The notes: a model not told the origin generated them from the sequence alone. DNA of 64,000 bases from Alphaproteobacteria bacterium (GCA_963555825.3 CAUVXB020000002.1:1024001-1088000); one strand, 5' to 3'; positions 16,926 to 32,761 are shown, numbered from the stretch's first letter. A program made the numbers and translations.

Positions 16926-17019
16926 GCAGTATATATTTTCTCGCGGCTTCACAATAATCGTAAGCAGTATACATTTTGCGTATCATCTTCGCACGGAAAA
17001 TGTATACTGCTTACGTTTT
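16917..17019. repeat. AT-rich element with three copies of a ~20-24-bp motif (two direct, one inverted)
   Basis: 16917-16940 AAAACATAAGCAGTATATATTTTC; 16959-16977 CGTAAGCAGTATACATTTT; 16996-17019 is an inverted copy matching copy 1 at 22/24. Confidence 0.8.
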
Positions 17020-17040
17020 CAGGACCACGGAGCGGCGGGC

Positions 17041-18231
17041 TCAAACGATACCCGATTCGCGGAGCGGGCGGCTCTCGATGACGCGCTGATAGCTCAGGCG
17101 CTTGAGGTCGATGGTGACGAAATAGCCGTCGAGGATAAGCTCGGCCATGGCGCGGCCGACGGCGGGCGCCTGTTGCAGGCCGTGGCCAGAGAAGCCGCAG
17201 GCGACGTAGAAGTTCGCCAGACCGTCGCGGCCCGGCCCGTCGAGTCAGGGGCCGATGATCAGGTTTTCGTCGAGCCGGTTGACGTCGTAGAGGCAGGCCC
17301 AAGCCTGGCCGACCTTGAGCGCCTCGAAGGCGGGCACGCGCTCTGCCAGGATCGGCCAGACCGCCGTGTCGAAATAGTCGTAATCGACCTCGAAATTGGC
17401 CCCGGCGGGCTCGTCGAGGCGGCTGCGGCCGCCCAGATAACCGACGCCCTCGGGCCTGAAGTAGACGCCGCTCGGGTCGATCACCAGCGGCATCGGCTCG
17501 ATCTGGCCACGGATATCGAACCCAAACACCATGCGCCGCACCGGCGCGACCGGCAACGGCATCTCGACCATGGCGCAGATCTCGGCCGACCAGGCGCCGG
17601 CGGCGATAATCAGATTGCCGACGATGCGCTCGGCGCCCGATTTCAGGCGCACGCCGTGAGCCCGCCGCGAGTCCGAGGCGATATCGACGACCTCGTCGGC
17701 GATGTATTCGACGCCGAGCGCGCGCGCCTTGCGGCGGTATCCTTGCAGCGCGCCGTGCGGGTCGAGCCAGCCATCCTCGCGGCCGAACACGCCGGCCTCG
17801 ATACCGGCGAGGTTGAGCGACGGAAAGCGCTCGGCGAGTCCGTCGCGGTCGAACATCTCGACCGGCGCGCCGAGTTCGCGCTGGACGCCGAACGCCGCGA
17901 CCATGTCGGCGAGACCCGTCGCGTCGGCCAGGAACAGATAGCCCTGTTCGCGCAAGTCGACGCGCGCGGGATCGCCGTCGACCGCCATCTCCTCGGCGAA
18001 GTTGCGCCAGATGCCGAGCCCATATTGCGACATCTTGATGTTCTCGGGCAGGCTGAATTGCTGGCGCGTGCCGCCCAGCGAACGCGGCGTCGCGGCAAAC
18101 TCGTACGTCGGGTCGCGCTCGATGACGGTGACCTTGCCGGCCCGGCCGTCACGCGCCAAATGGTAGGCGATCGACGAGCCGATGACGCCGCCGCCGATGA
18201 TCAGAACGTCGTCGAGCAGGTGGCCGGCCAT
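17041..18231 (-). pseudogene. FAD-dependent oxidoreductase (DAO/sarcosine oxidase beta-like) with in-frame TGA at 17245-17247
   Basis: IIGGGVIG N-terminus; the frame continues past the TGA as LDGPGRDGLANFYVACGFSGHGLQQAPAVG...GIV* to 17041. Confidence 0.85.
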
Positions 18232-18243
18232 GCGCTGACAGCT

Positions 18244-19725
18244 TTAACCGCCTGACGTCGCGTTGCCGAGCGACTCGATCGCGCTCTCGACGGTGGCGTG
18301 ATCGTCGCCGCCCGGCGGCAGCAGCGCGAGCAACCGCCGCCACAGGCCGCGCGCGCCGTCCATATTGCCGCTCTCGGCCTCGGCGCGGCCCAGCAGCCAG
18401 AGCGCCGAAGGGTTCTCGGCGTCGACGGTGGCGAGCTGGCGCAAGACGACGACGGCTTCCATTGGCACGGTGGCGTCCTCGGGCTGCGCCGCCATGATCG
18501 CGGTCACGTAGCTTTGCAGGATGTCCGGGTCGTCGGGCGACAGCGCGGCGGCCTGGGCATAGGCGTCGCGCGACTTCTGCGGCTCGCCCAGCACGCCGTA
18601 TGAGCGCCCGAGCCGCAGCCAACCATCGAGGTCGTCGGGCTCGTCCTCGAGCCGCTCGGCGAGGCGGGCGACCATGCCGCGGATCATCTCGCCCTGGTCG
18701 TCGGCCGACATCCCGGCGGCGGCGGCGATGTCCTCGGCGGTCGGCCCCGGCGGCGGCGCGGATGGCGCTGCCGACGCGGTGGGTGCGGCGGGCGCAGCCG
18801 ACGCGGTGGGTGCGGCGGGCGCAGCCGACGCGGTGGGCGCAGCGGACGTCAGGCCGGCGACATCGACACCGAGCCCAGCGGCGGTCTCGTCGATGCGCTG
18901 GCGCAACACCGGCAACCAGGGCGCCGCCGGGTCGGAATCGCGCAGCAGCGCGAGCCAATCGTCGAGCGCGCCACGCGCATCGCCGACCTGGTGTTTGGCG
19001 AGCGCCAGGTAGAAGCGCGCCGCGGGGTGCCCGGCATCGCGCGCCACGGCATCGTCGAAGGTCGCCTTGGCCTCGGGCGTGACCACGCCATCGGCGGCGA
19101 ATACCAGGAATTCGCCGAGCATCGCCGTCACGCTGGCATCGCCCTCGGCCAGCATCTCGGCATGCTTCAGGGCGATGACCGCTTCGTCGAAACGCTCGAG
19201 CACGCTGTAGGAACGGCCCAGCATGAGCCAGCCGTCGAGGTCGTTGGGCTGCGCCTTGAGGCGTTCGGCGAGCCCGGCGACCATCTGCTCGACGTCGGGC
19301 ACGCCGCCCTCGGGCATGGCCATCGCGGTCGGCGTCGCGGGGCGCTCGCGCGTCGCGATCGGCCGATCGCCGGCGCCCGGCGCGCCGAGCCACAGATAGA
19401 GGCTGCCGGCGACCAGCGGCAGCGCGACGACGACGGCGAAGGCGGTGATCAGATGCGTTGTGTCGGGTGCGCTGGCCTCCGGCGCAGGCTCGGCGGGCGC
19501 CGCGGCGAGCAGGCGGCGTTCGATCTCGAGCCGCGCGCTGTCGCGCTCCTCGGCGCTGATGACACCGCGCTCGAGGTCGACGTCGAGCTCGCGCAGCTGG
19601 TCGCGGTAGACCTCGACGTCATAGTCGGCGCGCGGCGCGACCGCGCGGTGACGGCGCAACAGTGGCACGGCGACGAGCGCCAGGGCCGCGACCGTCATGG
19701 CGCCGAGAGCGATGAACAGCAGCAT
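18244..19725 (-). CDS. ccmI: Cytochrome c biogenesis TPR protein CcmI/CycH
   Basis: VYRDQLRELD, YLWLGAP, DLDGWLMLGRSY TPR repeats; last gene of the ccm operon. Confidence 0.9.
   Translation of the reverse strand: MLLFIALGAMTVAALALVAVPLLRRHRAVAPRADYDVEVYRDQLRELDVDLERGVISAEERDSARLEIERRLLAAAPAEPAPEASAPDTTHLITAFAVVVALPLVAGSLYLWLGAPGAGDRPIATRERPATPTAMAMPEGGVPDVEQMVAGLAERLKAQPNDLDGWLMLGRSYSVLERFDEAVIALKHAEMLAEGDASVTAMLGEFLVFAADGVVTPEAKATFDDAVARDAGHPAARFYLALAKHQVGDARGALDDWLALLRDSDPAAPWLPVLRQRIDETAAGLGVDVAGLTSAAPTASAAPAAPTASAAPAAPTASAAPSAPPPGPTAEDIAAAAGMSADDQGEMIRGMVARLAERLEDEPDDLDGWLRLGRSYGVLGEPQKSRDAYAQAAALSPDDPDILQSYVTAIMAAQPEDATVPMEAVVVLRQLATVDAENPSALWLLGRAEAESGNMDGARGLWRRLLALLPPGGDDHATVESAIESLGNATSGG
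18770..18843 (-). repeat. 27-bp coding tandem repeat (APTASAAPA x~3) in the CcmI linker
   Basis: GCCGACGCGGTGGGTGCGGCGGGCGCA repeated. Confidence 0.85.
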
Positions 19726-19728
19726 ACT

Positions 19729-20001
19729 TCAGCCTGGATTTCTGACCATGGACAGGCGCGTCATCGCGTCGGGCGGAGCCGATCCGCCAGGAGAAGGCCG
19801 CCGAGCGTGGCCTGGGCCACGGTCAAGGCCTTCGACGCCGCGGGCGGCCCGCCCGGCGCGACCCTTAAGGGCGGCGGATATCGGACGACAGGCAGCGTCA
19901 AAGCGCTTGCCCGATGCGATAGCATCGCGCTGCACACTTTTCCTAGCCTGTCGTCCGATATCCGCCGTGCCGCACCTGTCCATGGTCAGAATTCCTGGCT
20001 A
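19729..20001 (-). mobile_element. 273-bp cruciform MITE-like element, copy 1 (between ccmH and ccmI)
   Basis: ~30-bp terminal inverted repeats and two long internal arms; homologous to 25730-26002 and 27250-27522. Confidence 0.9.
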
Positions 20002-20457
20002 GCCGTCGTCGATCAGTGCGTCGAGGCGGCGCCGCTCGTCGGCGGTGAGCGGTCCGGCCGCCGCGGTCCTTTGCCCCTGGCGGCGCAAGTAAACGGCGGC
20101 GCCGGCGGCGCCCAATAGCAAAATCACCGCCGGGCCGAGCCACAGCACATAGGTCGTCGGCTTGAAGGGCGGTTCTAGCAGGACGAAATCGCCGTAGCGC
20201 GACACGACATAGGCGACGATCGCCTCGTCGGTCTCGCCGGCGACCAGCCTTTCACGCACCAGAAGTCGCAGGTCCTTGGCCAGCGTGGCGTTCGATTCGT
20301 CGATCGACTGGTTCTGGCAGACCAGGCAGCGCAGCTCCTTGAAGATGACCCGCGCGCGCGACTCGAGCGCCGTGTCGTCGAGCTGCTCGACGGCGCTGAT
20401 CGCGAAGGCCGGACCGGCGAGCAGGGCGATCAGCAGGGCGGTGGCGAGCGCCCTCAT
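19999..20457 (-). CDS. ccmH: Cytochrome c biogenesis protein CcmH/CycL
   Basis: LRCLVCQNQSI, RYGDFVL. Confidence 0.95.
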   Translation of the reverse strand: MRALATALLIALLAGPAFAISAVEQLDDTALESRARVIFKELRCLVCQNQSIDESNATLAKDLRLLVRERLVAGETDEAIVAYVVSRYGDFVLLEPPFKPTTYVLWLGPAVILLLGAAGAAVYLRRQGQRTAAAGPLTADERRRLDALIDDG

Positions 20458-20990
20458 CCGCGCAGCTCCTCGATCAGCGGCAGGATCGTCTGCTCGAGAT
20501 CCTCGGGCCGGATCGGGCCGATGTGCTTGTAGACGATGCGCCCGCTGCGATCGATGACGAAGGTTTCCGGCAGGCCGTAGACGCCCCAGTCGATGCCGAC
20601 GCGGCCGTCGTGGTCGGCGCCCGAGCGAACGTAGGGATCGCCCATGCGGTCGAGCCAGCGGCGCGCGTCCTCCGGCTTGTCCTTGTAGTTGATGCCGTAG
20701 ACCGGCACCGTGCCGTCCTCGGTCAGGCGGTTGAGCAGCGGGTGCTCGACGCGGCAAGCGACGCACCAAGAGGCGAAGAAGTTGACCAACCGCACCTCGC
20801 CCTCGAGATCGGCGCTGGCGAGGCCGCGCGCGCGGCCCTCGACCGGGCCGAGCGCGAACCTAGGCACGTCTTGGTCGATCAGCACCGAGGGGATCTGGCT
20901 CGGATCGCGCGTCAGGCCGATGCCGAGGCCGACGGCGAGCACGACGAACAGGCTGAGCGGCAGCATGTAGCGCAGTTGGACCGCGCTCAT
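20454..20990 (-). CDS. ccmG: Thiol:disulfide oxidoreductase CcmG/DsbE
   Basis: FASWCVAC, GVYGLPETF. Confidence 0.95.
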   Translation of the reverse strand: MSAVQLRYMLPLSLFVVLAVGLGIGLTRDPSQIPSVLIDQDVPRFALGPVEGRARGLASADLEGEVRLVNFFASWCVACRVEHPLLNRLTEDGTVPVYGINYKDKPEDARRWLDRMGDPYVRSGADHDGRVGIDWGVYGLPETFVIDRSGRIVYKHIGPIRPEDLEQTILPLIEELRG

Positions 20991-20991
20991 G

Positions 20992-22983
20992 TCAGACGGT
21001 TTGCGGCTTGGCGCCGGCGCCCGCCGCGGCGCGCGCGCGGCGCGGCGCGCCGACCCTGAGCCGGCGATCGGTCAGGCTGACCGCGCCGCCGACGACGATC
21101 AGGATGGCGCCGAGCCAGATCCACGGCACCAGCGGGTTATGGTAGATGCGCACGCTCCAGCCGCCCTCGCCGTCGGGATCGCCGATCACCGCGTAGAGGT
21201 CGGCCAGCCAGGTGGTGTGGATCGCCGCCTCGGTGGTCGTCATGTCCTGTGACGGATAGGTGCGCTTCTCGGGGAACAAACGGGCGATCGGCTCGCCGTC
21301 GCGGGTCACCACGAACTCGGCGCGCAGGGCCGAATAGTTCGGCCCGGCAAGGTCGCGCACGCCCTTGAAGGTGAACGTGTAGCCGGCGACCTCGGCCTGC
21401 TCGCCCGGGTGCATCAGCGCGATATGCTCGGTCCGCCAGACCTGCGAGACGATGATCGCGGCAACGACGACGGCGATGGAGGCATGCGCGATGGTCATGC
21501 CATAGGCCGAGCGCGGCAGGTGGCGCGCGCGATTGAAACTCTCCGACAGGGGCGCGCGGAACAGCTTGATGCGCCCGGCGAACTCGATCACGGTGCCGGT
21601 GAACAGCCAGGCCGCGATACCGAGGCCGATCGCCGGCAGCGGCGAGCCGCCGGTGGTCGCCATCCAGCTGCCGACGAACACCACGGCGGTGACGGCGAAG
21701 GCGAGCTTGAGCCGGCCCAACACGCCAGGCAGGTCGGCGCGTTTCCACGACAGGAACGGGCCGATCGCGGCGACCACCAGAAGCGGCATCATCAGGGGCC
21801 CGAAGGTACCGTTGAAGTAGGGCGGCCCGACCGAGACCTTGCCGAGATCGAGCGTGTCGAGCGCCAGCGGGTACATGGTGCCGAGCAGCACCGTCGAGCA
21901 GGCCGCCGTCAACAAGAGGTTGTTGAGCACCAGGCCGCCCTCGCGCGAGATCGGCGCGAACAGGCCGCCGGCCTTGAGCTTCGGCGCGCGGATGGCATAG
22001 AGCGTCAAGGAACCGCCGATGACGATCACCAGGAAGGCCAGGATGAACACGCCGCGTGTCGGGTCGGTCGCGAAAGCGTGCACCGAGGTCAGCACGCCCG
22101 AACGCACCAGGAAGGTGCCGAGCAAGCTGAGCGAGAAGGCGATGATCGCCAACAGGATGGTCCAGCTCTTGAGCGCGTCGCGCTTCTCGGTAACGATCGC
22201 CGAGTGCAGCAGCGCGGTGCCGGCGAGCCACGGCATGAACGAGGCGTTCTCGACCGGGTCCCAGAACCAGAAGCCGCCCCAGCCGAGCTCGTAATAGGCC
22301 CACCAGCTGCCCATCGCGATGCCGAGCGTCAGGAACGACCAGGCGACCAGCGTCCAGGGCCTGACCCAGCGCGCCCAGGCGGCGTCGACGCGGCCCTCGA
22401 TGAGCGCCGCGACGGCGAAGGAAAACGCCATCGAGAAGCCGACGTAGCCGAGGTAGAGGAACGGCGGGTGGAAGGCGAGGCCGGGGTCCTGCAGCAGCGG
22501 GTTGAGATCGCTGCCCTCGAAGGGCGCCGGATCGAGGCGCAGGAACGGGTTCGAGGTAAAGACGGCGAACGCCAGGAAGCCGACCGCGATCCACGCCTGG
22601 ATGGCGAGCACCCGGGCGCGCAGCGTGGGCGGCAGGTTGCCGCCGAAGAGCGCGACCGCCATGCCGAACAGCGCGAGGATCATGGCCCACAAGAGGATCG
22701 AGCCCTCGTGATTGCCCCACACGCCCGAAATCTTGTACATCAGCGGCTTCGCCGAATGGGAGTTCTGGGCGACGTTCATGACGCTGAAGTCGGACACCAC
22801 ATAGGCGTAGGTCAGGCAGCCGAACGAGATGCCGATGAACAGCATCTGGCCGACGCTCGCAGGGCGCGCCACCGCCATCCAGGCGGCGTTGCCGGTCTGC
22901 GCGCCGATCAACGGAAGCGTGCCCTGGACGAGCGCCACCAGGAGCGCGAGTATCAGCGCGTAATGTCCGATTTCGGCGATCAT
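20992..22983 (-). CDS. ccmF: Heme lyase CcmF
   Basis: [17 protein letters not shown]. Confidence 0.97.
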
Positions 22984-23426
22984 TGTTCGTCGGCGCCTTT
23001 CCACTGGCCGGAGGCCCTGAGCGCGTCGGCGACCTCGGGCGGCATGTAGTTTTCGTCGTGCTTGGCGAGCACCATCTCGGCGGTGAACACGCCATTCGCG
23101 TCGAGATAGCCCTCGGCGACCACGCCCTGGCCCTCGCGGAACAGGTCGGGAAGCACGCCTTTATAGGTGACCGGCACGGTCTTCGACAAGTCGGTCACCC
23201 GAAACGATACCGTGAGACCGTCGGCCAGGCGGGTGACGCTGCCTTCCTCGACCAGGCCGCCGATGCGGAAGCGCCGGCCTTCGGGGATGTCCTTCACGGT
23301 CAGATCGGTCGGGCTGTAGAAGAACACCAGGTTGTCTTCGAAGGCGACCAGCACCAGCCCGGCCGCCGCGCCGAGCAGCACCAGGCCGGTGAGTATGAAT
23401 GTAAGGCGCCGGTGCTTACGCTTCAT
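22980..23426 (-). CDS. ccmE: Heme chaperone CcmE
   Basis: [18 protein letters not shown]. Confidence 0.97.
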
Positions 23427-23601
23427 CGCCCGTCCCCGCATCAGCGCGGCGCCGGCGTGTCTCGAGCGCGTCGAGCTCGGCCTGGCGGGCGCGCAAGGCG
23501 CGCAGGCTCGCGACCAGCAACCCGGCCATCACCGCGGCGGCGCAGAGATAGGCCGGCCAGATGAAGGCGCCGTGACCGCCCATCGCGAGATATTCGCCCA
23601 T
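23416..23601 (-). CDS. ccmD: Heme exporter protein CcmD
   Basis: [12 protein letters not shown]; small TM protein between ccmC and ccmE. Confidence 0.85.
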
Positions 23602-23623
23602 TGTCCCTTGCCCCGTGTCCGCG

Positions 23624-24403
23624 TCAGCCGCCGTCGACGACCGCGGCGCCAGCCCGGCCCGCGTCATGTTCGTCGTGGCGCTGGACCTCGGCGATGTGCA
23701 GCGCGCGCAGCTTACGCGCAACGAGTTCGGCGCGCATGCGCAGGATCAACACCACGACGTAAAATGCCGTGAATCCCGCTGCCATGACCAGCAGCGGCGC
23801 CAGGATCGAGCCGTGGATCGCCGGGCCGTCCATCTTCACCACGCTGGCCGGCTGATGCAGGGTGTTCCACCAGTCGACCGAGAACTTGATGATCGGCACG
23901 TTGACGACGCCGACCAGCGCGAGGATCGCCGCCGCGCGGCCGCCGCGCGACGGGTCGTCGAAGGCGCCGCGCAGCGCCATGTAGCCGAGGTAAAGGAAGA
24001 ACAACACCAGGACCGAGGTAAGCCGCGCATCCCAGACCCACCAGGTGCCCCACATCGGCTTGCCCCAGAGCGAGCCCGTAACCAGCGCGATGAAGGTGAA
24101 ACTCGCGCCGATCGGCGCCGACGCCTGCGCCGCGATGTCGGCCAGCGGATGCTTCCAGATCAGCGCCGAGGCGCTGGCGACGGCCATGCCGGTGTAGACG
24201 AATAGCGCCATCCAGGCGGCCGGCACGTGGATGAACATGATGCGCACCGTCTCGCCCTGCTGGTAGTCGGGCGGTGCGACGAACAGCGCAAGATAAAGGC
24301 CGACGCCGATTAGCGCCGCCGTCGCCCAGGCCGCCCAGGGCAGGATGCGAGCCGAATAGCGCATGAAGCGCGCGGGATTGGCGAGGCGGTGCATGGCGTT
24401 CAT
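23624..24403 (-). CDS. ccmC: Heme exporter CcmC
   Basis: WGKPMWGTWWVWDARLTS, WWNTLHQ. Confidence 0.97.
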   Translation of the reverse strand: MNAMHRLANPARFMRYSARILPWAAWATAALIGVGLYLALFVAPPDYQQGETVRIMFIHVPAAWMALFVYTGMAVASASALIWKHPLADIAAQASAPIGASFTFIALVTGSLWGKPMWGTWWVWDARLTSVLVLFFLYLGYMALRGAFDDPSRGGRAAAILALVGVVNVPIIKFSVDWWNTLHQPASVVKMDGPAIHGSILAPLLVMAAGFTAFYVVVLILRMRAELVARKLRALHIAEVQRHDEHDAGRAGAAVVDGG

Positions 24404-24409
24404 CTGAGC

Positions 24410-25075
24410 CTATTCGAGCGCCAGGCGCAACGCCGCCGCGCTCGCCCAAGGGCAGAGCGGCAGCGCGGCGAGCAGCAGGCCGCCAAGGAGCGACAGGTGC
24501 GGCCCCGCCGCCAGTCCGAAGACCGCGGCGTCGATCGCGCCTACCCCGAAGATAAGCACTGGAATGTAGAGCGGCAAGACGAGCAGGCTGACGAGCACGC
24601 CGCCGCGGCGCAGCGACACGGTGAGCGCCGCGCCGATCGCGCCGACCAGGCTCAGCACCGGCGTGCCGAGCAGCATCGCCGCGACGAGTGTGGCGAAGCC
24701 CTCGGCGCTCATGTTCAACAGCACGGCGAGCAGCGGCGCGGCGACGACCAGCGGCAGGCCGGTGGTCAGCCAATGGGCGAGGCATTTGGCGAGCACCGTG
24801 ACCTCGAGCGGCAGGCGGGACATGGCAATCAGCTCGAGGCTGCCGTCGTCGTGGTCATCGCGGAACAGACGGCCGAGCGACAGCATGGCGGCGAGCAGGG
24901 CGGCGACCCAGATTATGCCCGGCGCGATGCGCGCCAGCATGGTCGCCTCGGGCCCGACGCCGAAGGGAAACAGCGTGACGGTCAAGACGAAGAAGACGAT
25001 GACGTTTGCGCTGTCGCCGCCGCGCTTGAGCGCGAGCTTGAGGTCGCGGCGCACCAGCCACCAGAAGCCGTTCAC
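24410..25075 (-). CDS. ccmB: Heme exporter permease CcmB
   Basis: LFPFGVGP, DGSLE, LPLYIPVLIFG; GTG start overlaps the ccmA stop. Confidence 0.95.
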   Translation of the reverse strand: MNGFWWLVRRDLKLALKRGGDSANVIVFFVLTVTLFPFGVGPEATMLARIAPGIIWVAALLAAMLSLGRLFRDDHDDGSLELIAMSRLPLEVTVLAKCLAHWLTTGLPLVVAAPLLAVLLNMSAEGFATLVAAMLLGTPVLSLVGAIGAALTVSLRRGGVLVSLLVLPLYIPVLIFGVGAIDAAVFGLAAGPHLSLLGGLLLAALPLCPWASAAALRLALE

Positions 25076-25725
25076 GGCGCGGCCCCCTCGATGGCGCCAA
25101 GGTCCAGCGCCGCCGCGTCGGGCACCGCGAGCCCGCCGTGGGTCGCGACGACCGCGAGACCGCCGGCTGCGCGGTGCTCGGCGATCATCGTCTCGATGAT
25201 GGCGACCGAAGCGCCGTCGAGCGTGACCGTCGGCTCGTCGAGCAGCCACAAGGGCGCAGGCGCCGCGACGAGGCGCGCGAGGCCGAGCCGGCGGCGCTGG
25301 CCGGCCGACAGGAGCTGCGCCAGCACGTCGGCCAGATGGTCGATGCCGAGGCGGTCGAGTGCGCGCTTGGCGGCGCCCGTGGCGCCGTCCGGGCTGCCCA
25401 ACAGCCCGGCCCAGAAGGTCAGGTTCTCGGCCACGGTCAGTACCGGTTTGACGGCGTCGAGATGGCCAACATAGCGCAGCCGCGCGTGATGCGCTTCCGG
25501 GTCGTTGGCGACCGGCGCACCGTGCCAGGTGATCGTGCCGGCGGCCGGCGCGAGCAGGCCGGCGAGCAGACGCAATAGGCTCGATTTGCCGCTGCCGTTG
25601 GGCCCGGCCAGCAGCAGCGCGCCGCCCGGCGCGATCGCGAAGTCGACGCCGGCGAAGACGCTGCGCTCGCCGCGTATACAGGCCAAGCCACGTGCCGCGA
25701 GGCCGCTATCGGCGTCCTTAGTCAT
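25072..25725 (-). CDS. ccmA: Heme exporter ATPase CcmA
   Basis: GPNGSGKS, LSAGQRRR, WLLDEP. Confidence 0.95.
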   Translation of the reverse strand: MTKDADSGLAARGLACIRGERSVFAGVDFAIAPGGALLLAGPNGSGKSSLLRLLAGLLAPAAGTITWHGAPVANDPEAHHARLRYVGHLDAVKPVLTVAENLTFWAGLLGSPDGATGAAKRALDRLGIDHLADVLAQLLSAGQRRRLGLARLVAAPAPLWLLDEPTVTLDGASVAIIETMIAEHRAAGGLAVVATHGGLAVPDAAALDLGAIEGAAP

Positions 25726-25729
25726 GGCC

Positions 25730-26002
25730 TTAGCCCGGCGTTCTCACTATGGACAGGCGCGTCATCGCGTCGGGCGGAGACGATCCGCCAGAAGAAGGCC
25801 GCGGCGCGTAGCCTGGGCTACGCGCAAGGCCTTCGACGCCGCGGGCGGCCCGCCCGGCGCGACCCGCAGGGCGGCGGATATCGGACGACAGGACGGCGTC
25901 AAAGCGCTTGCCCGATGCGACAGCATCGTGCCGCGCGCTTTTCCTAGCCTGTCGTCCGATATCCGCCGTGCCGCACCTGTCCATAGTGAGAATTCCGGGC
26001 TA
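25730..26002 (-). mobile_element. 273-bp cruciform MITE-like element, copy 2 (between the CoA ligase and ccmA)
   Basis: Same architecture as copy 1; TAGCCCGG...CCGGGCTA ends. Confidence 0.9.
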
Positions 26003-27250
26003 GGTCAGGTCGCGCTGGTCGTCGATGACCTTGCCGTCATCGGAGAGGCTGCCGGGCGGCACGATCGAGACCCGGCCGCGCAGCTTGCAGACGGCCTGCA
26101 GCGTTTCGATGATGGCGGCGGTGAGGCCATCGGCCGCGCCCGAAACCTCGCAGTGGAGCGTCATGACGTCGCGGCCATCCTCCTGCTCGACGACCAGGCG
26201 GCCCCTGCCGACTTCGGGGTGGCGGGCGAGCACCTGGGCGACCTGCTCGGGGTGGACGAACATGCCCTTGACCTTGGTCGTCTGGTCGGCGCGCCCCATC
26301 CAGCCCTTGATGCGCATGTTGGTGCGCCCGCAGGGGCTCGGCCCCGCGAGCACCGCCGAGAGGTCGCCGGTGGCGAAACGGATAAGCGGGTATTCGGGTG
26401 TAAAGATGGTCACCACGACCTCGCCGACCGCGCCTTCGGCGACTGGCGCGCCGGTGCCCGGCGTGACGATCTCGAGGATCACGCCCTCGTCGACGATCAT
26501 GCCCTCCTTGGCCGGTGATTCGTAGGCGACCAGGCCGAGGTCGGCGATGGCGTAGCACTGCAGGACGTCGATGCCGTAGCCTGCGATCTCGGCGCGCAGG
26601 CTGGGCGGTAGCGCCTCGCCGGAGACCAGTGCCTTGGTAATGCTCGTCAGGTCGAGCCCCGCCTCGCTGCCCCGCTCCAAGAGGACCTTGAGGAACGAGG
26701 GGGTGCCGACATAGGCCTGCGGACGGACGTCGGCTATCGTCTGGAGCTGCTGCTCGGTGTTGCCGACGCCGCCGGGTACGACGGCGCAGCCGAGCGCATG
26801 CGCGGCGCTCTCGAGCATCATGCCGGCTGGCGTCAGGTGGTAGGAGAAGCAGTTGTGCAATATGTCGCCGGCACGGAATCCGGCGGCATGGAGCGCGCGG
26901 GCGAGGCGGAAAAAGTCCGGTCGGTGCGCCGCGGGGTCGTAAATCGGTCCCGGCGAAACGAAGATGTTGGCGAGCGCGCCCGGCGCGACTGCGGCGAGCC
27001 CGCCGAACGGTGGCCGCGCCCGTTGGCGCTCGATCAAGGCAGACTTGCGCGTCACCGGCAGCCGGGCGAGCGCCGCGCGATCGACGACGGCATCGGCGTC
27101 GATATCGGCGAACAATTCGGCGAAGTGCGGCGCCTTGGCCTTGGCGTGGGCGACGTGCGCCGGCAACGCCGCGAACAGCGCGCGCTCGCGCGCCTCGGGA
27201 TCGCGCGTCTCGAGGTCGTCGTAGAACTCGCCGCCCGCGCTCACCGGCAT
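26000..27250 (-). CDS. Phenylacetate-CoA ligase family AMP-binding protein
   Basis: SPGPIYDP, YPLIRFATGD, GRADQTTKVKGMFVHP. Confidence 0.85.
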   Translation of the reverse strand: MPVSAGGEFYDDLETRDPEARERALFAALPAHVAHAKAKAPHFAELFADIDADAVVDRAALARLPVTRKSALIERQRARPPFGGLAAVAPGALANIFVSPGPIYDPAAHRPDFFRLARALHAAGFRAGDILHNCFSYHLTPAGMMLESAAHALGCAVVPGGVGNTEQQLQTIADVRPQAYVGTPSFLKVLLERGSEAGLDLTSITKALVSGEALPPSLRAEIAGYGIDVLQCYAIADLGLVAYESPAKEGMIVDEGVILEIVTPGTGAPVAEGAVGEVVVTIFTPEYPLIRFATGDLSAVLAGPSPCGRTNMRIKGWMGRADQTTKVKGMFVHPEQVAQVLARHPEVGRGRLVVEQEDGRDVMTLHCEVSGAADGLTAAIIETLQAVCKLRGRVSIVPPGSLSDDGKVIDDQRDLT

Positions 27251-27522
27251 CAGCCCGGAATTCTCGCCATGGACAGGCGCGTCATCGCGTCGGGCGGTCG
27301 CCGAGCCGCCAGGAGAAGGCCGCCGAGCGTGGCCTGGGCCACGGTCAAGGCCTTCGACGCCGCGGGCGGCCCGCCCGGCGCGACCCGAAGGGCGGCGGAT
27401 ATCGGACGACAGGCGGCGTCAAAGCGTTTGCTCGATGCGACAGCATCGCGCCGCACGCTTTTCCGAGCCTGTCGTCCGATATCCGCCGTGCCGCACCTGT
27501 CCATGGCGAGAATTCCGGGCTA
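27250..27522 (-). mobile_element. 273-bp cruciform MITE-like element, copy 3 (between the ABC ATPase and the CoA ligase)
   Basis: Perfect 26-bp terminal inverted repeat AGCCCGGAATTCTCGCCATGGACAGG. Confidence 0.9.
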
Positions 27523-27526
27523 GTTC

Positions 27527-28360
27527 CTAAAGCCAGCGCTTGCGGCGCCGGTAATGCTTGAAGTCGCGGTAGCTCTTTCGGCCGGACGCGCTGAGGCCCA
27601 GGTAGAACTCCTTGACGTCTTCGTTGTCGCGCAGCTTCCCGGCGTCGCCGTCCATGACGACGCGGCCGTTCTCGAGGATATAGCCGTAATGCGCGTAGCG
27701 TAGCGCGACGTTGGTGTTCTGCTCGGCGAGCAGGAAGCTGACGCCCTCGTTCTCGTTGAGCTGCTTGACGATCTCGAATATCTCCTCGACGAGCTGCGGC
27801 GCGAGACCCATCGAAGGCTCGTCCAAGAGGATCATCTTGGGCCGCGACATCAGCGCGCGGCCGAGCGCGCACATCTGCTGCTCGCCGCCCGAGGTATAGC
27901 CGGCCTGCGCCTTTCGGCGCTCCCTGAGGCGCGGAAAGTAGCCATAGACCAGATCGAGATCGGCTTCTATCGCGGCCTTGCCGTCGCGCCGGGTGTACGC
28001 GCCGGTCAGGAGATTCTCCTCGACGGTCAGGTGCTCGAAGCAGTGGCGTCCTTCCATGACCTGGATGACGCCGAGCCGAACCAACTCGTTCGGCGTCAGC
28101 GCGTCGACCCGCTTGCCGGCGTATTCGATCGAGCCCTTGGTGACCTCGCCGCGCTCGGCGCGCAGCAGGTTCGAGATCGCCTTGAGCGTGGTCGTCTTGC
28201 CGGCGCCGTTGGCCCCGAGGAGGGCGGCGATGCGCCCCTCGGGAACCTCGAGCGAGACGCCCTTCAACACCAAGATCACGTGGTCGTAGATGACCTCGAT
28301 GTTGTTGACGGCCAGAAGAGGCGCGTCGCCTGCGGCCTCGAGCGCCGCGGGCGCTTCCAT
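27527..28360 (-). CDS. LivF-like ABC transporter ATP-binding protein
   Basis: GANGAGKT, SGGEQQM, LDEPSMGL. Confidence 0.92.
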   Translation of the reverse strand: MEAPAALEAAGDAPLLAVNNIEVIYDHVILVLKGVSLEVPEGRIAALLGANGAGKTTTLKAISNLLRAERGEVTKGSIEYAGKRVDALTPNELVRLGVIQVMEGRHCFEHLTVEENLLTGAYTRRDGKAAIEADLDLVYGYFPRLRERRKAQAGYTSGGEQQMCALGRALMSRPKMILLDEPSMGLAPQLVEEIFEIVKQLNENEGVSFLLAEQNTNVALRYAHYGYILENGRVVMDGDAGKLRDNEDVKEFYLGLSASGRKSYRDFKHYRRRKRWL

Positions 28361-28411
28361 AGGAATCCTCCTAAAGCCGTCGTGACCGGCCGCTCACACG
28401 TTGCGCGGCGG

Positions 28412-29737
28412 TCAGTCGGTGCCGTCGCACTTGCGCGGCGTGATGCCCTTCTCGGCGGCGTAGGCGGCGGCGGCGGCCTCGATCATCGGGCGAACGACGT
28501 CGCGCATCGGCGTGATCCAGTCGCTGACGAACACCCACTTCGAGCCGTCCCACTGCTGGATGCGCACGGGACCGTTGCTCTCGTGGTCCTCGCAGGTGAC
28601 CTTGACCGGGTTGGTGAAGCCGGCGAGGCCGAGCGCGGCCAGCCGATCGGCCGTGAGGTCGAGGTTCTCGAGCCCATACTGGACCTGCTCGCCGGTCAGC
28701 GGCTTGTTGCCGAACTTGCCCATGGCGGTGCTGATCGCCTCGGTCGAGAATACCGCGTTGATCAGGCCGCGGTTGTACAGCACCTCGCCGAAGTTGTTCT
28801 CCTTCGCCTTGGCGAGATCGCCGCCATAGAGACTCGCCAGGATTTCCTGGTGCGCCGGCCAATCGCTGCCGTTGCCGGTGAAGTTAGCGCCCTTGTAGCC
28901 GGTCGCGGCGTCACCCGCCGGCACGACGTCCGCTTCGGACGAAGACCACCAGTTGCCGATGAAGTGATCCATCGGGTAGTTGACCGCGGCGGCTTCCTTG
29001 ATCGCCACCTGGTTCATGACGCCCCAGCCGGACATGTACACCCAGTCGGGTTTGTTGCGGCGGATCTGCAGCCAGGTCGCCTTCTGCTCCTGGCCCGGAT
29101 GGTCGACCGGCAACAAGAGGAGCTCATAGCCGTGCTTCTCGGCCAGGACCTCGAGCGTCGGGTTGGCTTCCTTGCCGTAGGGGCTGTTGTGGTAGACGTG
29201 GGCGATCTTCTTGCCCGCGAGCTTGTCGAGGCCGCCTTCCTGGGCGCCGATGTACTTGATGACCGCCGAGGCCTGGCTCCAATAGGTCGTCGGGAAGTTG
29301 AAGGTCCACTTGAACACGCGGCCGTCGGCCGAAGCGGTGCGGCCGTAGCCCATCGAGTGCACCGGGACGTGGTCGGCCCAGGTCTTCTCGATCAGCTGGT
29401 AGGTGATGCCCGTCGACAGCGGATTGAACACCGCGGCGCCGGTCTCGCCTTCGCCCTTCAGCTTCTCGTAGCATTCCACGCCGACATCGGTCTTGTAGCC
29501 GGTCTCGCATTCGATCAGGTCGATCATGACGCCGTTGACGCCGCCCTTGGAGTTCACGAGCGCGATGTAATCGCGGACCCCGTTGGCGAACGGCGTGCCG
29601 TTCGGCGCATAGGCGCCGGTCCGGTACGTCAGAGACGGAAGCGTCATCGAGCCTTCCGCGAGCGCGGTCGTCGTCGGCGCCAGCGCGGCCACGAAGGCGG
29701 CCGCCGCCGCGCCAAGTATCAGTTTCCTCACAAACAT
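28412..29737 (-). CDS. LivJ/K-like ABC substrate-binding protein
   Basis: Signal peptide, YRTGAYA, GGVNG; operon context. Confidence 0.9.
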   Translation of the reverse strand: MFVRKLILGAAAAAFVAALAPTTTALAEGSMTLPSLTYRTGAYAPNGTPFANGVRDYIALVNSKGGVNGVMIDLIECETGYKTDVGVECYEKLKGEGETGAAVFNPLSTGITYQLIEKTWADHVPVHSMGYGRTASADGRVFKWTFNFPTTYWSQASAVIKYIGAQEGGLDKLAGKKIAHVYHNSPYGKEANPTLEVLAEKHGYELLLLPVDHPGQEQKATWLQIRRNKPDWVYMSGWGVMNQVAIKEAAAVNYPMDHFIGNWWSSSEADVVPAGDAATGYKGANFTGNGSDWPAHQEILASLYGGDLAKAKENNFGEVLYNRGLINAVFSTEAISTAMGKFGNKPLTGEQVQYGLENLDLTADRLAALGLAGFTNPVKVTCEDHESNGPVRIQQWDGSKWVFVSDWITPMRDVVRPMIEAAAAAYAAEKGITPRKCDGTD

Positions 29738-29894
29738 CCCATTCCTCCCTAAGATCGATTGTATGATTGGTGTTCCAACGACGTGACGCTTTGGCGCGCC
29801 ACCGCCGACGGAAACAACGAGCAAGCGTAACACACCGCCGAAGCGGCCGTAAACGCCCCTTCGGGCGCGTCGATCCGGCGCCGGTCCGGCCCGC

Positions 29895-30968
29895 CTAATG
29901 CGGGAACGGCCACAGCCGGAGCTTTTCCTTGGCGATCTGCCAGAGCCGCGCCAGCCCGCGCGGCTCGACGATCAGGAAGAAGATGATCAACCCGCCGAAG
30001 ACCATGAACTCGATGTGCTTGGCGTCGACCGCCTGCATGCCCAGCCCGCCGACGAAGAGATTGGTCAGCATGATCGGCATCAGCACGATGAAGGCCGCGC
30101 CCATGATCGAGCCCATGACGCTGCCCAGGCCCCCGATGATGATCATGAACAGCACCAGGAACGACAGGTTGATGTCGAAGGCGATGGTCTCGACGCTGCC
30201 GAAGTGGAGCATGAACAGCTCGGCGCCGGCGACGCCGCAGACGAACGACGAGACGGCGAAGGCCAGCAGCTTGGTTTGCAGCGGTCGGATGCCGATGATC
30301 TCGGCGGCGATGTCCATGTCGCGGATCGCCATCCAGGCGCGCCCGATGCGTCCGCGCACCAGATTCTTGACCAACACGGCGAACAGCACGAGCATGGATA
30401 GGGCGGTCAGATACTTGACCTCCGGCGTGGCCAGCGCGCCGGTGATCAAGACGCCGAACATCTCGCGCGGCGGCGCGTCGATCGTCCCCGACGGATTATA
30501 GTTGTAAAACCAGGCGACCCGGTTGAACAGCCAGATCAGGAAGAACTGGGCGGCGAGCGTCGCGACCGCGAGGTAGAAGCCCTTGATGCGCAGGCTGGGC
30601 AGGCCGAAGAAGACGCCGACGGCGGCCGCGAAGCCGCCCGAGAGCACGAACACGACGATGATGTTGAGCTCGGGGAAGCCGGTCGCCAGCTTATACGACG
30701 CATAGGCGCCGACCGCCATGAAGCCGCCGGTGCCCAAGCTGAGCTGGCCGGCGTAGCCGGTCAGGATGTTGAGGCCGACCGCTGCCAGCGCGTAGACCAC
30801 GAAGGGGATCAGGATCGCGTTGAACCAGTAGTCGTTGGCGACCAAGGGCACGACGACGAAGGCGACGATCAGCACGGCGGCGACGAACACCCGGTCCTGG
30901 GCAATCGGGAAGATCGCCTGGTCGGCGCCGTAACTGGTCTTGAACTGGCCCGCCTCGCGGTAGATCAC
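29895..30968 (-). CDS. LivM-like ABC permease
   Basis: GLNILTGYAGQLSLG, IIGGLGS. Confidence 0.92.
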   Translation of the reverse strand: MIYREAGQFKTSYGADQAIFPIAQDRVFVAAVLIVAFVVVPLVANDYWFNAILIPFVVYALAAVGLNILTGYAGQLSLGTGGFMAVGAYASYKLATGFPELNIIVVFVLSGGFAAAVGVFFGLPSLRIKGFYLAVATLAAQFFLIWLFNRVAWFYNYNPSGTIDAPPREMFGVLITGALATPEVKYLTALSMLVLFAVLVKNLVRGRIGRAWMAIRDMDIAAEIIGIRPLQTKLLAFAVSSFVCGVAGAELFMLHFGSVETIAFDINLSFLVLFMIIIGGLGSVMGSIMGAAFIVLMPIMLTNLFVGGLGMQAVDAKHIEFMVFGGLIIFFLIVEPRGLARLWQIAKEKLRLWPFPH

Positions 30969-30971
30969 GTC

Positions 30972-31907
30972 TCATACCCTCTCGATGATGCGTTCGCCGA
31001 ACAGGCCCTGGGGTCGGAACACCAGGAACACCAGCGCCAGCATGTAGGCGAACCAGCCCTCGATCGCGCCGCCCAGCGCCGGTCCCCAGTAGATTTCGGC
31101 GATCTTTTCGCCGACGCCGATGATCAGACCGCCGACGATGGCGCCCGGCACCGAGGTGAAGCCGCCCAGGATGAGCACCGGCAGCGCCTTGAGCGCGATC
31201 AGCGACAGCGAGAACTGCACGCCGCTCTTGGAACCCCACATGATGCCGGCGACCAGCGCGACGATGCCGGCGACCGACCAGACGATGATCCAGATCGTCT
31301 TCAGCGGGATGCCGACCGAGAGCGCCGCCTGATGATCGTCGGCGACGGCGCGCAGCGCGCGGCCGATGCGCGTATAGTGGAAGAAAACGGCGAGCACGGC
31401 GACCAGGGTGCCGGCGGTGGCCGCGGCGACCAGCTCGAACTCGTTCAACAGCACGCCGCCAACCTCGAACGGGCTGTCGGGGATGCCGATGTCGAGCCGC
31501 TTGACGTTGCTGCCCCAAAGCGAATCGCCCAGGCCCTCGAGGAAGAAGGCGAGCCCGATGGTCGACATGAACAAGATGATGTGTTCCTGGTTGACCAGCG
31601 GGCGCAGCACGAGGCGCTCGATGGCGAAGGCCAGCGCGACCATCACCGCCGCCGTCAGCACCAGCGCGATGGGTATCGGAACGCCCCACTCCATGATGCC
31701 GACCAACGTCAGCGCGGCGAACAGCGCGAGTACGCCTTGGGCGAAATTGAACACGCCCGAGGCCTTGAAGATGAGCACGAAGCCGAGCGCCACCAGCGAA
31801 TACATGACGCCCGCCGACAGGCCGCCGACCACCACCTCGATGAAGAAGATCGGCTCACCGGCGATGTCGAGGAACGGCGCCACCAGCATGTCGTTGAGGA
31901 ATTCCAT
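30972..31907 (-). CDS. LivH-like ABC permease
   Basis: YSLVALGFVLIFKASGVFNFAQG, RPQGLFG. Confidence 0.92.
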   Translation of the reverse strand: MEFLNDMLVAPFLDIAGEPIFFIEVVVGGLSAGVMYSLVALGFVLIFKASGVFNFAQGVLALFAALTLVGIMEWGVPIPIALVLTAAVMVALAFAIERLVLRPLVNQEHIILFMSTIGLAFFLEGLGDSLWGSNVKRLDIGIPDSPFEVGGVLLNEFELVAAATAGTLVAVLAVFFHYTRIGRALRAVADDHQAALSVGIPLKTIWIIVWSVAGIVALVAGIMWGSKSGVQFSLSLIALKALPVLILGGFTSVPGAIVGGLIIGVGEKIAEIYWGPALGGAIEGWFAYMLALVFLVFRPQGLFGERIIERV

Positions 31908-31918
31908 CGGCTGCCGGG

Positions 31919-32761
31919 CTACGCCTCGTGCGGGACGCCGAGATAGGCGTCGATGACGTTCTGGTCGGCGCGCACCACGTCGGGCGGGCCGTCGGCGATC
32001 TTGCGCCCGTAGTCGAGCACGATGACCCGGTCGGAGATGTCCATCACGACGCCCATGTCATGCTCGATCAGCGCGATCGTCGTGCCGAACTCGTCGTTGA
32101 CGTCGAGCACGAAGCGGCACATGTCCTCCTTCTCCTCGACGTTCATGCCGGCCATCGGCTCGTCCAACAGCAACAGATCAGGCTCGGCGGCGAGCGCCCG
32201 GCCGAGCTCGACGCGCTTTTGCAGGCCGTAGGGCAGACGGCCGACCGGCGTCTTGCGGATCGCCTGGATCTCGAGGAAGTCGATGATGCGCTCGGCGAAG
32301 GCGCGGTGCTCGAGCTCCTCGCGTTTCGCCGGGCCGACGTAGAGCGCCTGCCACAACAGGTTGCGCTTCATCTTCAACAGCCGCCCGGTCATGATGTTGT
32401 CGAGCGTCGACATGCCCCGGAACAGCGCGATGTTCTGGAAGGTCCGCGCGATGCCCTGGGCCGCGGCGTCGTGCGGGCGCATCTGCTGGCGCGTCTTCCC
32501 CTTGTACGTGATCTGGCCGTGCTGCGGGTGATAGAAGCCGTTGATGACGTTGAGCATCGAGCTCTTGCCGGCGCCGTTGGGGCCGATGATCGCCAGGATC
32601 TCGTGCTCGCGGATTTCGAAGCTGACATCGACGAGCGCGGTGACGCCGCCGAACGACAGGCTGATGTTCTCGACCTCGAGAATCGAATCGCCGATCGATT
32701 TTGACGCCTCGGCCGGCGCGTCGATCGCCGTCGCCGCCACTGCTTCCTGGGCCGTCGTCAC
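31919..32761 (-). CDS. LivG-like ABC transporter ATP-binding protein
   Basis: GPNGAGKS, ARTFQ, LPYG, LDEPMAG. Confidence 0.92.
   Translation of the reverse strand: MTTAQEAVAATAIDAPAEASKSIGDSILEVENISLSFGGVTALVDVSFEIREHEILAIIGPNGAGKSSMLNVINGFYHPQHGQITYKGKTRQQMRPHDAAAQGIARTFQNIALFRGMSTLDNIMTGRLLKMKRNLLWQALYVGPAKREELEHRAFAERIIDFLEIQAIRKTPVGRLPYGLQKRVELGRALAAEPDLLLLDEPMAGMNVEEKEDMCRFVLDVNDEFGTTIALIEHDMGVVMDISDRVIVLDYGRKIADGPPDVVRADQNVIDAYLGVPHEA

Follow-up and report, generated by a model that had tools for sequence, protein, structure and literature searches.

MITE copies on stop codons and at tight operon junctions of a G+C-rich alphaproteobacterial genome

Described repeat elements and the element reported here

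Several small repeats resemble the element reported here, among them the MIRUs, whose primary paper is reportedly Supply et al. 1997. Like the copies of our element at tight stop-start junctions (tight junctions), MIRUs are intercistronic repeats that lie co-oriented in operons. The ends of the MIRU ORF abut or overlap the flanking genes; this ORF is thought to limit the effect of the insertion on expression via translational coupling (excerpts of PMC12548453 and PMC3184786). The relay-ORF concept is therefore known, although the original prediction, made for the three copies described below, knew of no description of such an arrangement (excerpts of PMC12548453). According to the same excerpts, MIRUs are 40-100 bp long, often tandem and only imperfect repeats, and their described insertion sites are start codons, with a -4 overlap. 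Our element, in contrast, is a classical TIR/TA transposon present as single units of 273-582 bp, lands on stop codons, and often has a broken frame without evident harm.

RUP of Streptococcus pneumoniae, a MITE derived from IS630/Tc1-mariner, shares with our element the small size, terminal inverted repeats, TA target and TA termini (excerpts of PMC2229807 and PMC2170065), as well as the lack of a transposase, the many copies and the stable RNA hairpin (excerpts of PMC2229807). Unlike RUP, our element is longer (273 bp, or 540 bp as a composite with a nested MITE), has a three-arm fold, lands on CTAG and stop codons in a high-G+C genome and is strictly co-oriented at tight operon junctions, and no IS with matching ends was found for it here. 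ERIC and Correia/NEMIS are likewise TA-flanked MITEs co-transcribed with their neighbours. As RNA hairpins they act on the mRNA of the genes next to them, and for ERIC the orientation is crucial (excerpts of PMC2229807). Those effects concern mRNA stability or RNase cleavage and are experimental in the excerpted text, whereas here there is only a genomic orientation rule. The Rickettsia palindromic elements (RPE) are also palindromic, with an open frame tolerated in translated regions (excerpts of PMC2229807 and PMC10969869), but the excerpts place them in frame within genes as part of the protein, whereas our element lies between genes and is bounded by stops. Another MITE, Chunjie of Geobacter uraniireducens, differs in being A+T-rich, in its 9-bp direct repeats and in its transposase type, and the review mentions of it in the excerpts include neither a relay frame nor an orientation rule (PMC10969869, PMC3184786).

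Three copies in the window and the element family

The window, a 64,000-nt stretch of an alphaproteobacterial genome (labelled G000), holds three copies of the repeat, each exactly 273 bp long, all on the minus strand and in one shared orientation, with a mean column identity of 89% in an alignment including 30 nt of flank per side. All neighbouring genes are also on the minus strand, and their identities were taken from Pfam. Copy 1 (19729-20001; census copy #28) lies between ccmH (19999-20457; Pfam CcmH) and a ccmI/cycH-like TPR gene (18244-19725; TPR CcmH/CycH-type). Copy 2 (25730-26002; #29) separates an AMP-binding, phenylacetate-CoA-ligase-like gene (26000-27250) from ccmA (25072-25725; ABC ATPase), the first gene of ccmABC-EFGH. 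Copy 3 (27250-27522; #30) lies between a livF-like ABC ATPase gene (27527-28360) and the CoA-ligase-like gene. Read on the coding strand, all three copies start with TAG, and 15 nt later an ATG at element position 19-21 opens an 84-codon frame that runs to the next gene (minus strand 19729-19983, 25730-25984 and 27250-27504). The TAG is the stop of ccmH in copy 1 and of the CoA-ligase-like gene in copy 2; the livF-like gene has its own stop 4 nt upstream of copy 3. The frame stop is followed by AGT-ATG of the ccmI-like gene in copy 1 (start 3 nt past the copy) and by GGCC-ATG of ccmA in copy 2 (start 4 nt past), and in copy 3 the terminal TGA overlaps the ATG of the CoA-ligase-like gene (TGATG).

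In copy 1, the 5' terminal inverted repeat (19971-20001, minus strand) begins with the duplicated TA and contains CCATGG, which supplies the ATG at position 19-21, and the 3' repeat (19729-19759, minus strand) ends with CTGA just before the ccmI-like ATG (19723-19725); the two pair with each other in the predicted fold. Each copy carries one extra base in a different column: at site C (TTAAGGG) in copy 1, at site B (an extra T, GCCG-T-CCTG) in copy 2 and at site D (GGCGACC) in copy 3. The original prediction had described this layout of co-oriented 273-bp copies, the use of the first TAG as the stop of ccmH and of the CoA ligase, and one extra base per copy at different sites; all of this was confirmed, the last by alignment.

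The three window ORFs had no Pfam match at E<=1, and codon usage of the copy 1 frame was non-coding. In a search of window positions 17000-30000 with Rfam 15, no family was reached (best 24.5 bits against a cut-off of 59, E=0.62). A consensus scan over 19500-27800 gave no promoter-like site and three terminator-like sites, which were not above shuffles and none of which lay within the elements. At the three window loci, contigs of the DNA runs X14 and X17 break inside the repeats; the listed joints of these runs include no empty-site joint, a result that carries no weight.

The genome census yielded 56 loci; 52 were two-ended, 51 of those shorter than 1 kb, and the rest were fragments. Other genomic copies were 86-100% identical to the window repeat, and sizes ranged from 258 to 582 bp. 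With such copies and the strong predicted fold given below, the repeat lies well outside what chance would produce. Short-form lengths were 273 (15 copies), 275 (7), 276 (4), 274 (3) and 272 bp (1); long-form lengths were 540 (5), 542 (4), 541 (2) and 582 bp (2), plus others. In the composite 540-bp form, the element harbours a second, nested MITE. The modal 273 bp (15 of the 52 two-ended copies) is mostly one common haplotype, and the haplotype of copy 3, with its extra base at site D, is the commonest in the family.

Terminal inverted repeats of about 30 nt (AGCCCGGNNNTCTCACCATGGACAGG) were found at both ends of 52 copies. The ends read c-TA-GCCCGG...CCGGGC-TA-g, with TA at both ends in most copies and C preceding TA in 27/35 non-tight copies on one side and 26/35 on the other. 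The predicted RNA is folded into three arms, with a basal helix formed by element positions 1-31 and the final 31 (sense strand -205 kcal/mol, z -14; antisense -197 kcal/mol, z -13). The antisense inner hairpin ends in U4, the sense one in U3. There is no transposase inside the element. The repeats are thus a non-autonomous transposon (MITE) in the style of IS630/Tc1-mariner. The genome has 150 PF13358 (DDE_3) matches above the Pfam cut-off, and one of these many IS630-family transposases presumably mobilises the element in trans. No parent IS with matching ends was found among the five IS types whose ends were compared (four as both ends, one from an unreliable boundary estimate), all of which differ from the MITE repeat, and none of 33 extra repeat-like matches formed an inward pair 0.6-3 kb apart.

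Insertion target and occurrence in other assemblies

IS630-family elements insert at TA and duplicate it (excerpts of PMC2170065). The original prediction had rightly proposed a highly structured mobile element inside operons, and had suggested looking for empty sites in relatives; filled and empty site pairs were found. The contig L109 of a sister organism reads gtc[TAGCCC...GGGTTAG]gcacATG at the filled site, and the empty counterpart in G000 is gtcTAGgcacATG; L111 and L123 gave the same filled/empty pattern against G000, showing the TA duplication.

Insertion takes place at TA, usually within CTAG. CTAG is rare in this genome of 65% G+C (2617 occurrences, where base composition predicts 19375), and roughly one in five lies at predicted stops (545 of 2509 sites outside element copies), so the element lands on stop codons. 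As shown, the left TA and the G of the element rebuild the stop of the upstream gene and the right TA and the old third base leave the original stop a few bases before the next start. Both ends therefore carry stop codons because the insertion hits a stop codon and its TA is duplicated. The stop beside the downstream start simply derives from the original stop codon, whose target TA was duplicated. Altogether, the element provides the stop for a co-oriented gene upstream in 24 copies and for a convergent gene in 10. Apart from C-TA-G, the flanks showed no motif.

In the metagenome, 39 pattern matches were obtained in 38 loci, of which 12 matches were unusable (10 with a contig stopping before the 3' end and 2 with no recognisable 3' end within 700 nt). 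Seven contigs (meta3, 9, 11, 20, 24, 25 and 26) have flanks mapping to different G000 places; they are probably chimeras assembled across the repeat and were excluded when contexts were counted. Three of seven sister-organism insertions (meta1, 2, 4, 5, 7, 10 and 12) lie at tight junctions, all co-oriented; the seven are polymorphic and therefore recent. In two of these three (L112 and L123), the frame from the ATG at position 19 (ATG19 frame) is broken.

The same junction is occupied in G000 (#12) and in another genus (G004, L082), with 273 bp and an open frame in both. Copies group by genome: L081 and L082 are 96% identical, and #12 is closest to other G000 copies (93%). Orthology at this junction was therefore rejected, and we treat the shared occupation as parallel insertion or concerted evolution rather than long-term conservation. 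G000 was also rejected as a clean empty site for the G004 copy L081, the locus being rearranged with a 150-nt unrelated spacer.

Frame and orientation at tight junctions

The different positions of the extra bases had been taken as compensating indels under selection for continuous translation, a claim that was not supported. The three indel sites are polymorphisms common to other copies, and sites C and D showed no negative association (p=0.62). Independent metagenome assemblies agreed in length for #12 (273) and #54 (274) but not for #55 (273 vs 276), so that two of three sites matched. Because indel states recur in other copies and in independent assemblies, the recurring states are real and not the sequencing errors that the prediction had named as a possible flaw. 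We do not read the three window copies as independent frame repairs; they are three haplotypes at indel sites segregating in the family. The 84-codon frame belongs to the G+C-rich consensus of the family, and 273 bp is the length of the commonest haplotype.

Frames are open on both strands in many copies, with non-coding codon usage. A frame of such length was open in 29% of trials with composition-matched random sequence, and a neutral simulation expected 18.5 of 20 frames open (20 observed). Purifying selection against nonsense mutations was tried as an explanation and set aside, since the private substitutions, only 1-8 per copy, were too few and left the test without power.

Lengths not divisible by 3 and broken frames, which the prediction itself had set against continuous translation, were found among the 16 tight co-oriented copies. 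Five have such lengths (539, 542, 542, 274 and 541), and five have no ATG19 frame reaching the next gene, two of them being open in another frame. A frame from near the 5' end to the next start, as predicted, is thus present in most tight copies (13/16) and absent in 3/16: #0 precedes a small ORF that has no Pfam family, #1 precedes sdhA and #49 precedes ftsY, each at a distance of 3-4 nt. Survival at a tight junction does not depend on a complete through frame. The ATG19 frame ends within 12 nt of the next start in 11/16 tight copies, and all seven short-form tight copies keep it open to the next start.

Sixteen of the 51 copies are at tight junctions, all co-oriented with the genes (16:0, with #45 treated as an insertion inside a split gene), compared with 6:7 at loose tandem junctions (p=0.001). 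At convergent gene ends, the stop lies at the element 5' end in six copies and at the 3' end in six. Tight-junction enrichment is about 10-fold, with a copy in 15 of the 264 TA-containing stops there, in 6 of the 1219 at loose tandem junctions and in 12 of the 918 at convergent gene ends. In addition, an ATG-less CCAAGG/CCTTGG subfamily, which differs in both repeats, is absent from tight junctions (0/10 vs 16/41 for other copies, p=0.02). The orientation rule, the enrichment and the absence of this subfamily keep the idea of operon compatibility alive. Gene contexts were assigned with a crude gene caller, and Pfam checks covered the 16 tight junctions and #45, plus the window genes; a Pfam family was found for 25 of 28 flanking ORFs checked at tight junctions and #45. 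Copy #45, which splits its gene, was the only intragenic copy seen.

On operon mRNA, the three-arm fold of about -200 kcal/mol is predicted to bring the upstream stop next to the downstream start through its basal helix. Survival at tight junctions only when co-oriented indicates that some RNA-level property of one strand matters there, likely candidates being ease of translation or read-through, or polarity of the other strand. A replication-strand cause of the bias gained no support; GC skew and gene-strand bias were too weak and scrambled in both contigs to bear on it.

On balance, we favour the explanation of a MITE that lands on stop codons, with a frame inherited rather than repaired, and that occupies tight junctions only when co-oriented. 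What might make one strand acceptable can be viewed in several ways. It is doubtful, though conceivable, that, in line with the original prediction, ribosomes released at the 5' TAG reinitiate at the ATG 15 nt further along, open up the whole structure by translating it, and stop by the next start, keeping coupling and avoiding polarity; selection would then keep start, frame and stop, not the peptide. The frames ending close to the next start, the two tight copies open in another frame and the intact short-form copies are consistent with this, as are strict co-orientation, the missing ATG-less subfamily and the parallel occupation of one junction in another genus with open frames. Moreover, in #13 and #25, which lack the terminal stop or no longer have it in frame, the frame continues to a TGA overlapping the downstream ATG (ATGA), and in #18 and #21 a +2 insertion is accompanied by a change removing the TAG at position 57, so that the new frame stays open. 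Some of the 540-/582-nt composites are open on both strands (random expectation 0.6%). These composites, the intact short-form copies, the frames of #13, #25, #18 and #21 and the missing ATG-less subfamily agree better with a selected relay frame than with a mere by-product. An AGG-AGA-AGG stretch of very rare codons and an AGGAG run in the antisense frame might hamper its translation. RNA-library contigs run from upstream genes into the element, by which co-transcription with neighbour genes is only hinted at, and MIRUs provide a precedent (excerpts of PMC12548453). However, neither intact through frames (tight 13/16 vs elsewhere 21/35, p=0.20) nor lengths divisible by 3 (11/16 vs 18/35, p=0.36) were in significant excess at tight junctions, the frameless #0, #1 and #49 and the broken sister-organism insertions are tolerated there, and shared haplotypes account for the indel pattern. 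With an open antisense TAG-ATG frame in 25/51 copies (manual count), frame openness alone cannot yield 16:0, and the ATG-less subfamily may just have another history or target habit.

A purely structural coupling seems unlikely. Here the helix of the two terminal repeats would hold the upstream stop codon opposite the final bases preceding the downstream start; on reaching that stop codon, a ribosome would melt the helix base and free the initiation site, so no ORF would be needed, and antisense copies would be purged from operons as that strand terminates, is cleaved or stalls expression. The pairing of the element ends, the broken-frame copies before sdhA and ftsY, the restriction of the rule to tight junctions, the U4 rather than U3 on the antisense strand and the orientation-dependent RNA effect of ERIC repeats in Yersinia (excerpts of PMC2229807) point in this direction. 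Yet the helix is identical in both orientations and alone does not explain the bias. The consensus scan gave no terminator- or promoter-like site within the elements, and no C vs G strand asymmetry (a Rho-loading proxy) was seen. Genes also start 10-12 nt from the 5' end of #4 and #26, on the antisense view of the element, indicating that the antisense strand does not block initiation as such. Finally, transposition itself might favour stop-start junctions in one orientation, making the enrichment and the rule an insertion bias rather than the outcome of selection. The occupancy figures and the recent sister-organism insertions at tight junctions would fit, but we regard this as very unlikely: the CTAG target and the repeats are symmetric with no further flank motif, orientation is unbiased at loose tandem junctions and convergent ends, and Tc1/IS630 insertion is symmetric at TA (excerpts of PMC2170065).

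It is also conceivable, though less likely than not, that this MITE lineage has adapted to tight stop-start junctions by rebuilding the upstream stop, being tolerated only in the translatable or read-through orientation, and handing ribosomes on via the ATG relay frame and the terminal helix. If so, the transposon would carry its own adaptor for translational coupling, comparable to MIRUs but independent and thus a second case beside them, and would illustrate the way in which mobile DNA gains a foothold even at the most constrained intergenic sites of a compact genome; the adaptor would also account for the 16:0 orientation and the enrichment. Such a hand-over would make the element a natural portable adaptor, placing 273 bp of very stable structure between coupled genes without silencing the downstream one. 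If there is no hand-over, the case still illustrates cleanly a general point: TA/CTAG-targeting transposons in G+C-rich genomes are funnelled onto stops and automatically gain stops at both ends. An element bounded in this way can look like a small conserved gene and so lead annotation astray. The junctions concerned include neighbours of ccm, sdh, ftsY and tilS.

MITE copies inside the ccm gene string

The three 273-bp copies on the minus strand of the window (copy 1, 19729-20001; copy 2, 25730-26002; copy 3, 27250-27522) are real as originally described: they are co-oriented, each opens with TAG on the coding strand and contains an ATG at element positions 19-21 followed by an 84-codon frame, and each has one extra base in a different column. 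The next start lies 3, 4 or -1 nt beyond the end of the frame. Based on Pfam assignments, the opening TAG is the stop of ccmH (19999-20457) in copy 1 and of an AMP-binding CoA-ligase-like gene (26000-27250) in copy 2, and in copy 3 it lies 4 nt past the stop of a livF-like ATPase gene (27527-28360) at the end of a liv-like ABC transporter. Additionally, a TPR CcmH/CycH-type gene (18244-19725), ccmA, ccmB, ccmC, ccmE, ccmF and a thioredoxin-like ccmG were found as neighbours of the copies. The ccm genes apparently form one long co-oriented string behind the transporter and the CoA-ligase-like gene (17245-32761, minus strand), in which the three MITE copies are the only spacers longer than a few bases.

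Family structure and insertion at stop codons

A blastn search identified 56 element loci in the source genome (two contigs, C1 and C2; 6.04 Mb, 65% G+C), 52 of them with both ends; 33 additional repeat-like matches have the appearance of remnants or other small elements. The ends are inverted repeats of ~30 bp with the junctions c-TA-GCCCGG...CCGGGC-TA-g. Short forms measure 273 (15 copies), 275 (7), 276 (4) or 274 bp (3), with single copies of 272, 258, 260, 279, 309 and 316 bp, and long forms measure 540 (5), 542 (4), 541 (2) or 582 bp (2), with single copies of 539, 536 and 553 bp. Census copy #17 (C1:2279585-2281323) carries a 1.47-kb insert near its middle, probably an IS. The long form (for example, C1:820848-821387) consists of the short form plus a second, nested MITE of ~267-270 nt occupying the first arm's apical loop, with its own repeats (AGTACTCCCTTGCACGATTCCACGG...) and two free copies elsewhere (C2:934429-934695 and C2:1833069-1833336). 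Once formed, this 540-bp composite was mobilised to at least 16 sites, and the two 582-bp copies contain a further 42-nt insert. Both strands are open in some copies of the 540-nt and 582-nt forms, compared with 0.6% expected for random sequence.

The element RNA folds into a basal helix from the two terminal repeats, two long arms and a mini hairpin (sense, -205 kcal/mol, z -14; antisense, -197 kcal/mol, z -13); no Rfam family was matched by the element. Between C1:1895282-1895554 and locus L082 of another genome, G004, three base pairs of the arm-2 stem are strand-swapped (CGGGCGG/CCGCCCG to CCGCCGG/CCGGCGG), and in both G004 copies a G-C pair of arm 1 has been replaced by C-G, a compensated change, indicating that the hairpins are maintained, via selection or template switching within the palindrome. 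Another MITE family of ~270-330 bp (boundaries approximate), with repeats starting TAGTGGATAGAATCCAACATATGG... and ends in CTAG, occurs at C1:829334-829661, C2:233561-233888 and ~9 more sites, and its core is 75% identical to that of the nested MITE. G002, a further genome, and G004 contain more MITE families with different repeats and a common core module (GGGCGGGCCGCCCGCGGCGTCGA...), so the interiors are mosaics of modules that move from one family to another.

Metagenome contigs searched with a 28-nt pattern yielded 38 loci from a sister organism, with flanks ~90-96% identical to the source genome, and several were filled where the source genome is empty. The clearest pair, at L109, reads gtc[TAGCCC...GGGTTAG]gcacATG when filled and gtcTAGgcacATG when empty, indicating insertion at TA with TA duplication, the hallmark of IS630/Tc1-mariner transposition (PMC2170065). 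At least 150 DDE_3 matches above the Pfam cut-off were found in the genome. The MITE repeats were not found at the ends of the five IS types compared, of seven types, so we can only infer the mobilising enzyme. The element is an IS630-style MITE, and the stops at its ends arise incidentally when TA is duplicated at a stop codon. IS630-family IS are massively expanded genome-wide, including at ~44248-44667 and 50898-51335 (both minus strand) in the window; they comprise several types, each ~1.17-1.19 kb long and ending in TA/CTAG, whose copies are near-identical and in part arranged in tandem.

CTAG is strongly avoided in this genome (2617 sites vs 19375 expected, 13%), and 545 of the 2509 sites outside elements lie at predicted stop codons. 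When a TA-duplicating element hits the TA of a stop codon, TA joined to G gives the upstream gene another TAG, and the original stop is kept at the far end of the element, in its old place only a few bases ahead of the next start. In 24 copies the 5' TAG terminates a co-oriented upstream gene, and in 10 the 3' CTA terminates a convergent gene. Duplication of TA at a stop codon accounts for this part of the originally described pattern without selection on an ORF. TAG is the stop of 1637 of the 5394 predicted genes (30%), a large share for a bacterium of 65% G+C, and TA-duplicating elements supply part of this usage.

Origin of the open frame

Gene contexts were taken from our own gene caller, and the flanking ORFs of tight junctions, besides the window genes, were checked by Pfam (25 of 28 with a family). 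A junction counted as tight if the upstream stop lay inside the element or at most 5 nt from it, with the downstream start at most 10 nt away. Sixteen of 51 copies met this definition, all co-oriented with the genes. The frame from the ATG at 19-21 runs up to the next start in 11 of the 16, including #13 and #25, where its terminal TGA overlaps the ATG, and #18 and #21 are open in a different frame. A through frame is lacking in three: #0 (uvrA/small ORF), ending 36 nt short; #1 (sdhD/sdhA), with a nonsense codon at codon 18; and #49 (MiaB-like/ftsY), 541 nt long. A sense through frame was present in 13/16 tight copies and 21/35 others (p=0.20). Three new tight insertions in the sister organism were all co-oriented, with the frame from that ATG intact at L109 and broken at L112 (539 nt) and L123; a fourth insertion, L136, has an intact frame and a start at +15. 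Broken frames and lengths that are not multiples of 3 thus occur at tight junctions themselves, the outcome in operon-internal copies that the original prediction had named as refuting it.

In an alignment of 33 short copies, indels recur at four positions: A (+GC), B (+T), C (TTAAGGG vs TT-CGGG) and D (GGCGACC vs GGC-TCC). Copies 1, 2 and 3 carry the haplotypes C-only, B-only and D-only, respectively; among these copies, D-only is commonest (11, against 3 C-only and 1 B-only), 7 combine C with D (274 bp or more) and 2 lack both. The supposed compensating indels are sites that recur in the family, with no negative association between C and D (Fisher p=0.62) and no significant excess of lengths divisible by 3 at tight junctions (11/16 vs 18/35 others, p=0.36). 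The TAG frame was open in 29% of 273-nt sequences from a first-order Markov model of element composition, and with so few private substitutions neutrality predicts 18.5 of 20 frames open, compared with 20 observed. The frame shows non-coding codon usage (13-24 of 84 codons under 5 per thousand), and an equivalent TAG-15 nt-ATG frame on the antisense strand is open in many copies. We conclude that the family consensus is the source of the frame; compensating indels and selection for continuous translation, as originally proposed, are not supported.

Orientation bias at tight junctions

Tight junctions showed a 16:0 orientation (binomial p=3e-5), plus three further cases in the sister organism, vs 6:7 at loose tandem junctions (Fisher p=0.001). 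The sole apparent antisense case, #45 (C2:2370846-2371118), lies inside a DDAH/amidinotransferase-like gene that appears to be split by the element, its flanks being a 120-aa ORF that matches a DDAH-type profile in its N-terminal part and a 180-aa ORF that matches an arginine-deiminase-type profile further along. TA-containing stops were occupied at 15/264 tight junctions vs 6/1219 loose tandem (p=8e-8) and 12/918 convergent ends (p=1.5e-4). A subfamily with CCAAGG/CCTTGG in both repeats lacks the ATG; it was absent from tight junctions (0/10 vs 16/41 for the rest, p=0.02) and enriched at convergent sites (6/10 vs 5/41, p=0.004). The UPF0262/LMW-phosphatase junction is also occupied in another genus of the family (L082 in G004) by a co-oriented, open, 273-bp copy (flanks 75%, element 86% identical). 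Element copies cluster by genome, so this shared junction reflects parallel insertion or concerted evolution.

The strict co-orientation and the enrichment at tight junctions are real and replicated in the sister organism. Because ends, flanks and fold are symmetric, the orientation bias must arise in the interior of one strand. From the sequence, candidate asymmetries are two runs in the antisense frame, AGG-AGA-AGG (rare codons) and AGGAG, and an inner hairpin end with U4 on the antisense strand vs U3 on the sense strand. Since sloppy deletion cannot remove an element from a tight junction, retention bias could contribute to the enrichment, but it cannot explain the orientation. Co-orientation and enrichment also keep possible a relay or coupling function, which we hold to be rather unlikely.

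The element shares TA flanks, a stable hairpin and an open frame with Correia, ERIC, RUP and RPE, which are well known MITEs of this kind, and an RNA effect that depends on orientation has been reported for ERIC (PMC2229807). The concept, of which the original prediction knew no description, is in print for MIRUs, mobile intercistronic repeats with an ORF coupled to the neighbour gene and low-cost insertion (the 2025 review PMC12548453, and PMC3184786). In open-access text, no TIR-type MITE with a stop-to-start relay frame and no strict orientation rule for a MITE at tight junctions was found described.

In two RNA-library runs of one study, contigs at 25933-26265 and 27476-27714 link the genes upstream of copies 2 and 3, respectively, to the 5' part of the element. 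They are compatible with co-transcription, and possibly with DNA carry-over, and break in the repeat. The organism is a deep-branching alphaproteobacterium with relatives mostly among metagenome bins (top CcmH match 67% identical), and near-identical sequence occurs in host-labelled and in marine-sediment or sponge-labelled runs.
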